From Klebsiella phage N1M2: a stretch of DNA of 64,000 nt. A program made the translations under genes and the position numbers. The notes beneath the pieces were generated by a model. The model searched no databases, had not been told where the DNA came from, and worked only from the letters and a program-made list of their open reading frames with translations. Where the stretch lies: sequence record MN642089.1; one strand, 5' to 3'. Shown here one piece after another: positions 3,715 to 7,635 of this stretch (within the stretch, counting starts at the first letter, position 1; every line of letters starts with the position of its first letter).

Positions 3715-4452
3715 TTAAGGTTCTATAACTAACGTGGTTCTGACACTACGTGAGCTGCATTTAACATCGGCATTACTAAACCATACTTCATAGTTAGTGC
3801 TGCTTTTGTTAGCAACATATGTGGTAAAGGTCACTGTTTTCTCATCAATGATCTTAGCGTCTCTGATCCAGTTAAATGTATTGGATCTCCCAGCAGCCTC
3901 ACTATACGTATAGTCTCGTTGTACAACCAACTTGTCTGATGTTATACCATCCTCAGGAAGTTTGACTGTCCACACCCCCAGGTTTCTTTCTTTGTCATAG
4001 ACAACTGAAACTTCGCCTGGGCCAACAGGAATATAATCGAATTCTGTTCTAGACGTATACTCAACACCGTCAGCTAATATAACTATATTAGTGGCCGCGC
4101 TATCTGGCTTATTGACGATATTTATATGAGCACGCAGACTGGTTTCTCCAAAGAGACCGTTTTCTCTCTTCCTTATTTTTAACGGACCAGTACCGCCCCA
4201 GATACCGGGCTCAAATCCTTTTACTTCCCACTCATTAATATAGGTAGTATTCCCTTTCTCATCAATGACTCTGAATGTTCCAAGTACTGAAGATTTGACC
4301 ATGTTATCCCATTCGGTAACTAGTTGGTTACCTCCTGTATACCCATAGCGCTGTTCAAATAAGATTGCAGGTCTACCCATATAACCATTGACCGCTCCAA
4401 ATGAAAATAATAACTGTTTTAAGTCAACAATGTGACCATAGGATCCGAACAT
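3715..4452 (-). CDS. hypothetical protein (245 aa)
   Basis: ORF in same-strand operon downstream of HEG; start directly follows GC hairpin. Confidence 0.5.
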   Translation of the reverse strand: MFGSYGHIVDLKQLLFSFGAVNGYMGRPAILFEQRYGYTGGNQLVTEWDNMVKSSVLGTFRVIDEKGNTTYINEWEVKGFEPGIWGGTGPLKIRKRENGLFGETSLRAHINIVNKPDSAATNIVILADGVEYTSRTEFDYIPVGPGEVSVVYDKERNLGVWTVKLPEDGITSDKLVVQRDYTYSEAAGRSNTFNWIRDAKIIDEKTVTFTTYVANKSSTNYEVWFSNADVKCSSRSVRTTLVIEP

Positions 4453-4455
4453 AGA

Positions 4456-4479
4456 GTAGGGTGGCTTCGGCCACCCTAC
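4456..4479 (-). terminator. perfect GC-rich hairpin GTAGGGTGGC-TTCG-GCCACCCTAC downstream of homing endonuclease gene
   Basis: 10-bp perfect inverted repeat with TTCG tetraloop seen directly in sequence. Confidence 0.6.
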
Positions 4480-4494
4480 TCATTATGATCTTAA

Positions 4495-5292
4495 TTAAAG
4501 TTCGAAGTCATTGAATGCGCCTTCTGCAACATTGGAATCGATTTGACCTACCAGGTAAGAACTAACCAAAGATTGTTTATCATGGGAGAAAGCCCAGCCA
4601 TTAACAATCTTCTTTCCATTAGATTTTAGAGCACGCCCTATCGATCTCCTAGATATTCCCAAGATTCCAGCACATTCATGGCTCGATTTGAATAACACGA
4701 GTTCAGTCCTGTCACTTATCTCAAGACCATAGAACATTTTACTTGTTCTGGTTCCGCTGTTATTAACTGAAAGTCCCTCTAATGTTATTTTCCATGTGTG
4801 GTCTAATAAAGTATCTTTATATTTATTGACAATCATTGTGCCTGAGACATTGGGAGTTCCAGCCCATCTTGATAGTTCTCGCAGAGAGTGTAGAGTGATG
4901 ACTTTTCCTGTCTTTACATTCTCTATCTTTATATGTTGGCTTGCTTTATTAAGTCCTGTCTTATATGCATGGAAGATGTTATCTGAATTGGTAGTCCATT
5001 CAAGATTGCTCTTAGTGCAGTCTAATTTATTACCATTAATGTGATTACAAGTTATTAGTTTGCAACCTTCTGGAAGATCTGGCCTTGGGCCATTAAATAT
5101 GGAACACACGGTGACATGAATAGTTATATAAGCCTGAACACCATAATCAGAGACGAGATTAACTGAACGATATCCATTACGGAGAAGGTCTTTCATTTTA
5201 AATTGGTCTTTCTTTCTCCTAACATCACCATTTTCATTTATCTCATAATTAGAGAACCCAGGTATGATTATCCAATTATCTTTATTATCCAT
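4495..5292 (-). CDS. HNH-family homing endonuclease (NUMOD4-like N-term, HNH core CNHINGNKLDCTKSNLEWTTNSDN, C-terminal HTH), free-standing downstream of nrdB; C-terminal 24 aa copy the NrdB tail
   Basis: motifs WIIIPGFSNYEINENGDV and C-x-H-x-N-G-N-x-x-D...N-L-E-W; start taken at second Met (GAGGT SD 5 nt upstream) because first AUG (5310) lies inside hairpin arm with no SD; six-frame ORF is 4495..5310. Confidence 0.8.
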   Translation of the reverse strand: MDNKDNWIIIPGFSNYEINENGDVRRKKDQFKMKDLLRNGYRSVNLVSDYGVQAYITIHVTVCSIFNGPRPDLPEGCKLITCNHINGNKLDCTKSNLEWTTNSDNIFHAYKTGLNKASQHIKIENVKTGKVITLHSLRELSRWAGTPNVSGTMIVNKYKDTLLDHTWKITLEGLSVNNSGTRTSKMFYGLEISDRTELVLFKSSHECAGILGISRRSIGRALKSNGKKIVNGWAFSHDKQSLVSSYLVGQIDSNVAEGAFNDFEL

Positions 5293-5304
5293 GAATACCT
5301 CATG

Positions 5305-5332
5305 CCCCATTTACCCAATTGGGTAAATGGGG
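5305..5332 (-). terminator. perfect hairpin CCCCATTTACCC-AATT-GGGTAAATGGGG between nrdB stop and HEG ribosome-binding site
   Basis: 12-bp perfect inverted repeat seen in sequence; abuts SD of HEG. Confidence 0.6.
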
Positions 5333-5343
5333 ATGTTGTTTAT

Positions 5344-6489
5344 TTACAGACTAAAATCCGCAAAGTCATCAGTGTCGACTGTTGAATCAATTTGCCCCAC
5401 AAGATAGGAGCTGATCTCAGCCTCCTGTGGGGCCACCTGAACGTTGTCAGACACCAACCAGGAGTTAATCCATGGGATTGGGTTAGTGGTAGTTGTAAAT
5501 GGCATACCGAGCCCGATAGCGTTCATACGGATGTTCGCAATGTATTCAACATACTGGCACAGGATCGGCTCTGACAGACCAATCATAGAACCATCTTTAA
5601 ACAGGTATGCTGCCCATTCTTTTTCTTGCTGTACAACTTCCAAGAACATGTCGATTGATTCTTGTTTGCATTCTTCAGCAATTTCAGCCATCTCTGGATC
5701 ATCAGCACCATTTGCAAACAGATTCAGGATATGCTGAGTGCCAGTAAGGTGGAGAGCCTCATCACGTGCGATGAGTTTGATGATCTTAGCATTACCTTCC
5801 ATCAGCTTACGTTCTGCGAATGCAAACGAGCAAGCGAATGATACATAGAAACGAATAGCTTCCAGGGCGTTAACTGATTGAATACACAGATAAAGCGCTT
5901 TCTTAATCTCACGCAGGGTAACGACAACACGTTTACCATTAACAGTGTGAGTACCTTCACCCAGGTAATAATACTGCTGGGTTAAAGCAATCAGTTTATC
6001 GTAGTAACGGGACACCGCACCAGCACGACGGGTGATGTGTTCGTTATCCACAACATCTTCAAACACGATAGAAGGATCGTTAACGATGTTACGGATGATG
6101 TGGGTATAGGAACGAGAGTGAATCGTTTCTGAGAAGCCCCAGGTCTCTGCCCATGTTTCCAGTTCTGGAATACTGATAATCGGAAGGAAGGCTACGTTAG
6201 GCCCACGACCCTGTACGGAATCCAGAAGCGTCTGATATTTGAGGTTACTGATGAAGATATGCTTTTCATGTTCCGGAAGGTTCATGTAGTCAATACGGTC
6301 ACGAGTAACGTCAACTTCTTCAGGACGCCAGAAGAAAGACAGTTGCTTTTCAATAAGCTTTTCAAAGATACCGTGCTTTTGTTGGTCATAACGAGAAACG
6401 TTAACGTTCTGACCCATGAACATGTGTTCTAACAGTTGGTTGTTTTTATTTTGGTTAAAAGTTGAATAGCCGGACATGTTTAACTCCAA
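5344..6489 (-). CDS. nrdB: ribonucleotide reductase class Ia small subunit (beta, R2)
   Basis: long identical stretches to E. coli NrdB as recalled ([92 protein letters not shown]-terminal [13 protein letters not shown] tail). Confidence 0.95.
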
Positions 6490-6703
6490 GTAAGATTTGT
6501 TTAAGATGTTTGCACTTAGCTAATAATTATTACTCGGATAAAAGATTAAAGTTAGGCTAAAATAAATTCTTAATGAAAGACACTATCATACGTTAACTTA
6601 AACATGTTTTCACCGAAAGGTGGGAGGGAAAGGGTGGATATGTTTATATAGCGATTACGTAGTAATCATCCTTTAAAGTCTTTGGCCTTTGGTTCCAAAT
6701 CTT

Positions 6704-6733
6704 TTCAGGTAGATATTATTAAAGTGAAGTTAG
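6704..6733 (+). promoter_or_regulatory. copy of conserved phage promoter-like motif (TTCAGGTAGATATTATTAAAGTGAAG)
   Basis: member of 9-copy family, ~75 nt upstream of ATG 6781. Confidence 0.5.
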
Positions 6734-6780
6734 TACCTTAATTTAAATTTGTTGTGTGTTAAACTTTTGAAGGATTTAAA

Positions 6781-7635
6781 ATGAAAACTATTTTAGCTAT
6801 TGTAATTATGCTGTTTTCTCTTTCTTCTTTTGCTGAGGTTGATTACAGTAAAGAAGCGATGGATGCTCGTTGTGGTGATGGCCAGGAAATGATCTATTGG
6901 AATAAGATCGCTAAGACAGGTGCCGAAGTTAAAGTGTGCTTGAATGGGGATATGGTTTCTGGTGGCTTCTATATGCCTGATGGTGATGATATGGTTTACA
7001 CCTCACCATTGATACTAACCCATGTTCAAGTAACCAAAGACTATGAAGCAGTGATCGTTCAGAACTTACCTATGGCTTTCCGCTTCCAGCATAAGTATGA
7101 TGGTCGTGCTGATTATGCATACTTATTCGACATGGGTACAGAATCTGAAAACTCCCGACCTGTTGCTCTGGATCCTACCTTAGCGTATTCTAATATCATT
7201 GGACTGCGTGAAGCTAAACGTGGAACCTTCAGTATCGACCCTGTAAAGCCTGTAGAGAAGAAAGTTAAGACTACCCAGGAGAATACTCAGATCAAAACTT
7301 CTGATGCGGTAGGTGATCGCTGTGCTCCTGGTGATATCGTATTCTACGGTAAAACTGTGAAGGGTAATAAAGAAGTACTGGTTTGTCGTTGGAATGATAA
7401 TGTCTTTTATCGCTTTGGTAAAATCGGTAAGAAACCAGATATGGATTTAAAAGAAGACATTTCTAATATTGGTGTTGCTAACGAACTGGTCAGCATTCCA
7501 AATGGAGATGTTTATTATCACACTGGTTATGAGGATGGGCGTGAAGTTCTGATTGTTTCCCGCGGTAAAGACACATTAGCAACGATCGATCTTGATCAAC
7601 GCAGTGTTGTAAATAATATCAAAGCTTTATTCTAA
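6781..7635 (+). CDS. secreted/periplasmic hypothetical protein with Sec signal peptide (MKTILAIVIMLFSLSSFA|EV)
   Basis: N-terminal hydrophobic h-region plus AxA-like cleavage site; GAAGGA SD; followed by strong terminator. Confidence 0.6.
   Translation: MKTILAIVIMLFSLSSFAEVDYSKEAMDARCGDGQEMIYWNKIAKTGAEVKVCLNGDMVSGGFYMPDGDDMVYTSPLILTHVQVTKDYEAVIVQNLPMAFRFQHKYDGRADYAYLFDMGTESENSRPVALDPTLAYSNIIGLREAKRGTFSIDPVKPVEKKVKTTQENTQIKTSDAVGDRCAPGDIVFYGKTVKGNKEVLVCRWNDNVFYRFGKIGKKPDMDLKEDISNIGVANELVSIPNGDVYYHTGYEDGREVLIVSRGKDTLATIDLDQRSVVNNIKALF

Follow-up and report, generated by a model that had tools for sequence, protein, structure and literature searches.

Mobile open reading frames (ORFs) of fungal mitochondria provide the closest described precedent for the gene arrangement considered here. 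In these elements a foreign C-terminus arrives with an endonuclease ORF and the native one is displaced downstream, as in atp6 of Allomyces macrogynus, atp6, atp9, cox2 and nad3 of Glomus sp., atp9 of Rhizopus and cox2 of Mortierella (PMC3630166, where Paquin et al. 1994 is cited for mobile ORFs with C-terminal duplication). The subject of the present analysis is a comparable structure in the 253-kb Klebsiella jumbo phage N1M2. It lies at the 3' end of nrdB, the gene for the β subunit of class Ia ribonucleotide reductase (RNR), within a stretch of 64,000 nucleotides (nt) of sequence record MN642089.1, hereafter the window. A homing endonuclease gene (HEG) follows nrdB on the same strand and is flanked by two versions of the nrdB 3' end: tail 1, the working end of NrdB, and tail 2, a copy carried on the nuclease. 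In all likelihood a free-standing, intron-less HEG cassette has entered the 3' end of nrdB, its recoded tail 1 replacing the resident end, which persists downstream as the displaced tail 2.

As in the mitochondrial mobile ORFs, the endonuclease ORF is located towards the 3' end of an essential gene that is completed by a foreign C-terminal segment, the native copy is the one nearer to insert-less relatives, and most differences between the copies are synonymous. The N1M2 locus departs from that pattern in several respects. The host is a phage and the enzyme is of the HNH type, whereas the mitochondrial enzymes are LAGLIDADG or GIY-YIG proteins. The HEG is a separate cistron, set apart by a stop codon, a 51-nt spacer and a ribosome-binding site (RBS) rather than being in phase with the upstream gene, and its reading frame continues into the displaced native tail. 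Furthermore, five HEG-bearing alleles share an invariant recoded 17-mer. The original prediction, made from the letters of the N1M2 sequence, had taken the layout to be undescribed. For phages, no description of it was found in the open-access literature; the C-terminal duplications of mitochondrial mobile ORFs do match it (PMC3630166). The principle is known from mitochondria, and the phage form, with an HNH enzyme in a separate cistron, appears new.

Among phage elements, MobE of T4 is a free-standing HNH endonuclease encoded in the spacer between nrdA and nrdB. It nicks nrdB of HEG-less phages, and its own genome has been proposed to be protected by polymorphisms (PMC2790892). Like the N1M2 gene, it is free-standing beside nrdB and relies on upstream transcription (PMC2790892; PMC2988022). 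In both systems the target, which is a putative one in N1M2, lies in HEG-less phages at codons for a conserved NrdB residue that is critical to function, the nrdB flank is co-converted and self-protection is ascribed to polymorphisms of the HEG-bearing allele. Unlike the N1M2 gene, which sits within the nrdB coding region, T4 MobE shows the intergenic placement of the Seg/Mob type, targets the 5' end of nrdB and entails no coding duplication, displacement or fusion; it also belongs to another HNH subfamily, with a zinc-finger C-terminal region. In the large Aeromonas phage Aeh1, as outlined in PMC2988022, mobE lies inside nrdA, so that a HEG again occupies an RNR coding region with function kept, and hairpins regulate HEG expression. 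That outline describes 'genes in pieces', with two required nrdA polypeptides, whereas NrdB of N1M2 is a single full-length protein and the leftover tail is redundant. Finally, the HNH nicking endonuclease I-HmuI of Bacillus phage SPO1 and the N1M2 enzyme have in common, in this order, N-terminal strands, the HNH motif and a C-terminal DNA-binding module of the helix-turn-helix type, and in both cases insertion of the element disrupts its own target, a presumed one in N1M2. Whereas I-HmuI is housed in a group I intron of a DNA polymerase gene, the N1M2 element dispenses with splicing by means of a duplicated and recoded gene end.

Resident and incoming ends of nrdB

Both tails of N1M2 are 69 nt long and, judged by their protein sequence, form direct repeats on either side of the HEG; no third copy is present in the 64-kb window. 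The two encoded peptides agree at 15 of 22 residues, the first ten among them, and when the whole HEG product is compared with NrdB by BLASTP the tail pair is matched with E=2e-6. Within the shared ten-residue stretch eight codons differ synonymously. Over the full length the tails agree at only 39 of the 69 nucleotides and share no uninterrupted run of more than 5 nt. These figures bear out two claims of the original prediction, namely that the RNR tail is duplicated onto the C-terminus of the nuclease and that the second copy is not the product of a recent duplication within the genome.

The closest annotated relatives are the Petsuvirus jumbo phages Yubaba and Sureiya, which infect Serratia, and pEt-SU from Edwardsiella, none of which carries an endonuclease after nrdB. 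In the HEG-less order, as seen in Yubaba and Sureiya, the nrdB end is followed by a GC-rich hairpin and then by ATGTATGGATCCTATGGTCA. In N1M2 this sequence of tail, hairpin and ATGTTCGGATCCTATGGTCA stands behind tail 2, not behind tail 1, and the N1M2 hairpin corresponds in position to those found after the nrdB stop codon in Yubaba, Sureiya and pEt-SU and to those of the related loci L006, L007 and L092, which are described below.

Nucleotide identity follows the same division. The nrdB gene of N1M2 is 83% identical to that of Yubaba overall, with 88% in the first 60-nt bin and values of 0.70, 0.75 and 0.60 in the last three, and the megablast match between the two genomes ends at position 5423, just short of tail 1. 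Measured against the tail of Yubaba, tail 2 is 74% identical and tail 1 is 58% identical; across Yubaba, Sureiya and L007 the identity of tail 1 to their tails ranges from 58 to 65%, whereas the nrdB body reaches 82–83% in the same comparisons. The core of tail 2, TACCTGGTAGGTCA, is identical in Yubaba, Sureiya, L007 and L092. Between N1M2 and L006, tail 1 shows 81% identity and the nrdB body only 71%.

Because tail 2 is colinear with HEG-less relatives, hairpin and leader included, and is also closer to them in sequence, it is the displaced resident end of nrdB, and tail 1 together with the spacer hairpin and the HEG constitutes the insert. The cassette comprises 849 nt (window 5412..4564, minus strand) and is made up of tail 1, a spacer with hairpin and RBS, and a HEG ORF devoid of its own stop codon. 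The body of nrdB is resident; its final 22 codons and stop are derived from the cassette. Tail 1 provides NrdB with its Tyr356-equivalent and its C-terminal tail, and the protein stays whole: its length equals that of Yubaba NrdB (377 residues) and is close to that of pEt-SU (376 residues). The features of the locus are collected in Table 1.

Table 1. Features of the nrdB–HEG locus of phage N1M2 in window coordinates.
Feature	Position	Strand	Remarks
nrdB (class Ia RNR β subunit)	5344..6477	minus	377 aa; Pfam PF00268 Ribonuc_red_sm, E=1.3e-46
Tail 1, replacement 3' end of nrdB from the cassette	5344..5412	minus	22 codons + stop
Recoded 17-mer TCCTATCTTGTGGGGCA, codons S-Y-L-V-G	5393..5409	minus	putative immunity allele of the HEG target
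nrdB–HEG spacer, hairpin then GAGG RBS	5293..5343	minus	fold
HEG proper, I-HmuI-like HNH (by sequence)	4564..5292	minus	243 codons, ending at the junction
Tail 2, displaced resident nrdB 3' end = HEG C-terminus	4495..4563	minus	holds the HEG stop codon
Native nrdB terminator-type hairpin GAGTAGGGTGGC-CGAA-GCCACCCTACTC	4454..4481	minus	now 3' of the HEG
Post-terminator leader ATGTTCGGATCCTATGGTCA	4433..4452	minus	start of the next ORF, 4452..3715

The original prediction had assigned the roles of the two tails the other way round, regarding the copy fused to the nuclease as foreign or recoded. It correctly supposed that one tail came with the endonuclease, which proves to be tail 1 and not the nuclease-fused copy. 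The comparison that it suggested, with the nrdB ends of relatives lacking the endonuclease, shows a match to the copy on the nuclease and not to the end of nrdB itself, and the recoded signature resides in tail 1 of the HEG-bearing alleles. Its proposal of recoding that avoids self-cleavage or recombination is plausible, provided that it is applied to tail 1. A host origin of tail 1 was also considered and rejected: the corresponding codons of Escherichia coli nrdB, AGT TCT TAT CTG GTC GGG CAG, fit neither the recoded nor the sensitive core.

NrdB of N1M2 is approximately 76–79% identical to the chromosomal NrdB proteins of Yersinia, Serratia, Hafnia and other Enterobacterales. Since the paper describing N1M2 lists NrdB without NrdA (PMC7058600), the host α subunit may be the partner of the phage β subunit. 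Among close NrdB homologues, one NCBI entry (P0025) has 494 residues in place of the usual number of approximately 376 and ends in a normal tail; it may have an N-terminal extension or fusion.

Filled and empty sites in related phages

A protein search retrieved six close homologues of the HEG product, and all of those for which upstream DNA is available are located directly downstream of nrdB; the L092 sequence (1,031 nt) starts at the HEG and does not cover the nrdB end. The state of tail 2 varies among these loci. In L006 and L007, whose enzymes are 72% and 64% identical to that of N1M2, tail 2 is fused in frame. The HEG of L092 (49–50%) has its own stop codon (..NQQDLY TAA), after which 'CC' and then an intact tail 2 follow out of frame. 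The HEGs of L008 and L089 (both 51%) also have their own stop, after ..DKLDLIKILNE, and tail 2 is absent; a search for tail-2 remnants downstream of these two genes yielded none.

L007 is a near-isogenic filled site against the empty sites of Yubaba and Sureiya. In comparison with Yubaba, its identity amounts to 96.5% immediately before the tail and to 98.5% across the 2 kb downstream, and its tail 2 coincides with the functional Yubaba tail at 69 of 69 nucleotides, whereas its tail 1 reaches only 68%. The foreign segment has its left boundary inside TCG TCC TA/T CTT and its right boundary at ...AAA CTA/TCT TCC TAC, the slash marking the transition. Read from these boundaries, the insertion point lies directly 5' of the codon corresponding to Tyr356 in E. 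coli NrdB numbering. In the E. coli protein this tyrosine has a role in radical transfer.

The filled site of L007 also bears on the reverse polarity, in which tail 1 would be the resident end and tail 2 a foreign or recoded donor fragment brought along with the HEG. The divergence between the tails, in nucleotides and in codon choice, sits comfortably with that reading, and tail 2 ends in NDFEL-stop, to be compared with DNFEL-stop at the nrdB tail of the Erwinia phage Simmy50 (72% nt identity). It is nonetheless highly improbable: the native hairpin and leader are behind tail 2, the agreement between nrdB of N1M2 and that of its relatives breaks down precisely at tail 1, the core of tail 1 is confined to HEG-bearing genomes, and in L007 the complete match of tail 2 to the Yubaba end continues into the almost identical DNA downstream.

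A second genus provides another pair. In the Erwinia Agricanvirus Simmy50 a HEG encoding an enzyme 46% identical to that of N1M2 follows nrdB, and its stop codon gives way at once to GT TCT TAT CTG GTC GGT CAG...CAA CTG TAA. This tail-2 remnant and the intergenic region match the nrdB end of Desertfox, a phage without a HEG on the 3' side, with 98% identity, and the flanks of the two phages are 96–98% identical. In this pair, too, the insertion lies just before the Tyr356-equivalent codon. Presence and absence of the gene at one site in two pairs is a signature of mobility. Together with the lack of an Rfam intron, detailed below, the filled and empty sites substantiate the view, already put forward in the original prediction, that the locus records the homing, without an intron, of an endonuclease gene into an RNR gene.

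Immediately upstream of its nrdB, Desertfox was seen to possess a HEG paralogue (L005 2992-3828) whose product shares 38% identity with the N1M2 enzyme; the gene thus lies upstream of nrdB in Desertfox-type Erwinia phages and downstream in those of the Simmy50 type (L004). Between Simmy50 and Desertfox nrdB itself is 73% identical and both flanks are 96–98% identical, so that the gene forms an island of divergence bounded by endonucleases.

The recoded core accompanies the HEG. In the five HEG-bearing Petsuvirus-like loci with an available nrdB end (N1M2, L006, L007, L008 and L089) the nrdB allele reads TCC TAT CTT GTG GGG CA, whereas HEG-less alleles have TAC CTG GTA GGT, or TAC TTG GTG GGT in pEt-SU. 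The tail-2 copies carry TAC CTG GTA GGT as well, with the exception of L006, which has TAT CTG GTT GGT. The resulting 17-mer, TCCTATCTTGTGGGGCA, occurs once in the window, and among the invariant runs in the final 399 nt of the five alleles it is by far the longest, followed by one of 8 nt; over this stretch only 23% of the degenerate codons that are invariant at the amino acid level are identical as codons. It is invariant although the HEGs of those loci are only 51–72% identical, and the codons beside it (Ser354, Gln, Ile, Ser) vary synonymously among the five alleles. Linkage of the invariant 17-mer to the HEG, together with the mosaic relation of tail 1 to the nrdB body, shows that the recoded end belongs to the mobile unit; it appears to be under constraint at the nucleotide level. 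TAT, CTT, GTG and GGG are not the codons that these genes employ elsewhere, which argues against selection for translation efficiency.

The shared 17-mer also helps in judging a local origin, either by tandem duplication of the nrdB 3' end in situ with the HEG between the copies, or as an assembly artefact combining HEG-bearing and HEG-less versions. Equal tail length and the arrangement as direct repeats at the protein level around the HEG are what such an origin would produce. It is, however, scarcely credible, as tail 1 is nearer to tail 1 of other genomes, with which it has the 17-mer in common, than to its own tail 2, and identity changes abruptly at the insertion boundaries without gradual decay. 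In addition, the same architecture recurs in independent assemblies and in isolate genomes, across two genera.

Other insertions were noted in nrdB of these phages. A second interruption is found after ...IIKLIAR in Sureiya (L003 4844-5744), L007 (2504-3437) and L008 (3240-3478). In Sureiya and L007 it is approximately 900 nt long, gives no Rfam hit at the level of the gathering threshold and contains a 219-residue HNH_3/helix-turn-helix ORF annotated 'winged helix-turn-helix'. In L008 it is an ORF-less group I intron (RF00028, 69 bits). The nrdB gene of this clade has been struck by at least two independent selfish elements, and L007 has both.

The endonuclease, its fused tail and the neighbouring hairpins

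When read from the first ATG, the HEG ORF spans 4495..5310; the annotated start, supported by an RBS, is the ATG at 5292 and gives a protein of 265 residues. The gap between nrdB and the HEG is accordingly 33 nt to the first ATG or 51 nt to the likely start, in place of the 31 nt stated in the original prediction. The product matches 'hypothetical protein' N1M2_165 of Klebsiella phage N1M2 with 100% identity, and the paper on this phage does not mention the endonuclease. Sequence comparison identifies it as an HNH homing endonuclease of the I-HmuI type. Residues 65–111 match HNH_3 (PF13392) with 25.6 bits against a Pfam gathering cut-off of 24.8, a NUMOD4 match falls below its cut-off (20.5 against 23.4 bits), and phrog_59 'HNH endonuclease' is matched with E=3.2e-34. 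The nearest solved structure by sequence is I-HmuI (PDB 1U3E), a weak match (E=0.0035) over residues 7–132. The layout consists of N-terminal NUMOD4-like strands, the HNH motif and a C-terminal helix-turn-helix. Residues N83, H84, N96, N102, N105 and H108 are invariant in 7–8 homologues of 35–72% identity, and the catalytic residues line up with DHKDGNK...N...N of 1U3E.

Scans of IMG/VR with the HEG protein and with a recoded 20-mer gave no matches, and a metagenome scan with the HEG alignment recovered only distant HNH_3 relatives (25–48% identity), nearly all of them through the N-terminal half.

The gene is free-standing: tail 1 is closed by a stop codon, and the HEG is equipped with a GAGG RBS and an ATG of its own. 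No Rfam intron was found in window 4000-7000, even at E≤1. This negative and the stop codon ending tail 1 rule out an explanation by intron or intein.

The C-terminal end of the N1M2 enzyme is set apart from the remainder. Homologues align to residues 2–238 only, and in an AlphaFold2 model with a mean predicted local distance difference test score (pLDDT) of 77, residues 248–265 score below 50, so that the tail is predicted to be a disordered appendage. The three fused HEGs (N1M2, L006 and L007) form one clade, the tail-less relatives end 0–7 residues beyond a shared ..D-L motif, and the L092 junction contains an extra 8 nt (TATTAACC). Most likely the fusion is a by-product of the HEG stop codon having been lost once, in the ancestor of the N1M2/L006/L007 clade, a change comparable to the extra 8 nt of L092. 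The tail-2 copies are undecayed, including the untranslatable out-of-frame ones of L092 and Simmy50. Because these are intact as well, and because the L007 copy equals a functional allele, intactness of tail 2 is attributed to recent capture or refreshment by homing; it does not point to selection on the fusion protein.

A functional role for the fusion would require the captured C-terminal peptide of R2, from the Tyr356-equivalent to the C-terminus, to have been selected as a module that docks the nuclease onto the α (large) subunit of RNR, R1, either targeting the enzyme there or competing with NrdB. In class Ia RNR, free C-terminal peptides of R2 bind R1 and inhibit the enzyme, a property that speaks for this possibility, as do the in-frame, intact 22-residue tail in three lineages with HEGs 64–72% identical, the synonymous-rich divergence of tail 2 (10 synonymous and 4 non-synonymous changes between N1M2 and Yubaba) and the predicted flexibility of the appendage. 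Against it, tail 2 is equally intact in L092 and Simmy50 although it lies out of frame behind the HEG stop, the HEGs of L008 and L089 manage without any tail 2, the nucleotide identity of the L007 copy to a functional allele indicates recent capture and not long-term selection, and the single clade of fused genes probably reflects one event. Docking on the α subunit is very unlikely, and the fusion is probably not a functional R1-binding appendage. The same distribution of out-of-frame and absent tails weakens the original notion that the nuclease carries an R1-binding tail as a feature. Were docking nevertheless to occur, it could place the nuclease at the complex for deoxynucleoside triphosphate synthesis or replication, or throttle RNR, and a selfish element would have co-opted part of its target protein as a protein–protein interaction module.

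The spacer between nrdB and the HEG contains a hairpin (5305-5332) with a perfect 12-bp stem and a folding energy of -25.4 kcal/mol (z=-4.6). A strong hairpin is present at this position in every related cassette, its sequence differing by lineage, and that of L006 is followed by U9. Such lineage-specific hairpins fit an origin of the cassette as a donor 'nrdB end + terminator + downstream free-standing HEG'. Down-regulation by hairpins is known for phage HEGs (PMC2988022), and by analogy the spacer hairpin would also fit such control of the N1M2 gene. The 28-nt hairpin resembles a palindrome; on the plus strand it scores as terminator-like and is followed by ATGTTGTTTA, and it drew a spurious sub-threshold microRNA match in Rfam. 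Scans for sigma-70 promoters and terminators gave nothing above shuffled expectation.

Behind the native hairpin, the motif GGATCCTATGGTCA (window 4433-4446, minus strand) is kept in N1M2, Yubaba (L001 5314-5327, about 54 nt past the nrdB stop), Sureiya and L007. It is degenerate in pEt-SU, L006, L092, L008 and L089; in pEt-SU the post-hairpin leader reads GGGATTCTATGGTC and the nrdB end reads ...SEVNTEEFGDFQL before the stop codon. The motif occurs once in the 64-kb window, and its interpretation as a repeated promoter-like element is ruled out at this stringency. ORFs farther downstream are syntenic between N1M2, Yubaba and L007. The 245-residue ORF at 3715-4452 (minus strand) corresponds, at 74% identity, to the C-terminal 233 or so residues of a 1035-residue protein encoded after nrdB in Yubaba and L007. 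Its first 13 codons come from the conserved leader, which is non-coding in Yubaba, and approximately 2.4 kb of the counterpart of the 1035-residue gene is apparently missing in N1M2.

Proposed homing route and significance

The anatomy of the locus suggests a route by which the cassette could spread. In a mixed infection the enzyme would nick or cut a HEG-less nrdB at or near TCC TAC CTG GTA GGT, the codons for SSYLVG. Site-specific nicking or cleavage of HEG-less alleles is suggested by the insertion boundaries of the two filled/empty pairs, and cutting at the SSYLVG codons is probable by analogy with T4 MobE, with I-HmuI as the other model. Recombinational repair would then employ the nrdB body as left homology arm and tail 2 with the downstream DNA as right arm, and would copy tail 1, hairpin and HEG into the recipient. 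Homing through double-strand-break repair with co-conversion of flanks is an established pathway (PMC2988022). In the HEG-bearing product the functional junction would be immune by virtue of a recoded downstream half-site (TAT CTT GTG GGG), and the tail-2 junction would be immune by virtue of the HEG 3' end that replaces the upstream half-site. The low identity between the tails would also hinder recombination between the direct repeats, an event that would delete the HEG precisely; within any one genome tail 1 and tail 2 are 56–68% identical in nucleotides, with a longest identical run of 5–8 nt.

Several points weigh against the cassette explanation or parts of it. A search of the 120 closest NrdB proteins for a HEG-less sister of N1M2 with a tail equal to tail 2 yielded none, the nearest tails being SDVAEDAFDDFQL and SDVADDAFDDFQL, and the N1M2-specific empty site is reconstructed from relatives that are 83% identical. 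The presumed position of cleavage is derived from the insertion boundaries. The presumed sensitive core is still present in tail 2, so that immunity needs a recognition site reaching upstream of the junction. The support for the 17-mer amounts to approximately 0.23^5 per position and approximately 0.04 after correction for the number of positions, with phylogenetic non-independence ignored. Moreover, one exact invariant 17-mer is more than simple 'non-target' immunity needs.

At the level of annotation, the 265-residue 'hypothetical protein' N1M2_165 is a chimera, and the mosaic 3' ends of nrdB in these phages can mislead RNR phylogenies. The locus offers natural test material: filled and empty sites that define insertion at a catalytically critical codon, the Tyr356-equivalent; a 17-nt candidate immunity signature with four wobble differences; and a natural series of displaced-tail states, from fused through out of frame to lost. 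It is a clean natural system for the study of target immunity and of homing into essential coding sequence, and it introduces no new principle. A HEG can invade an essential phage coding sequence without intron or intein by means of a recoded spare end. The same solution is found in the mobile ORFs of fungal mitochondria, and the strategy appears convergent across very different genomes.

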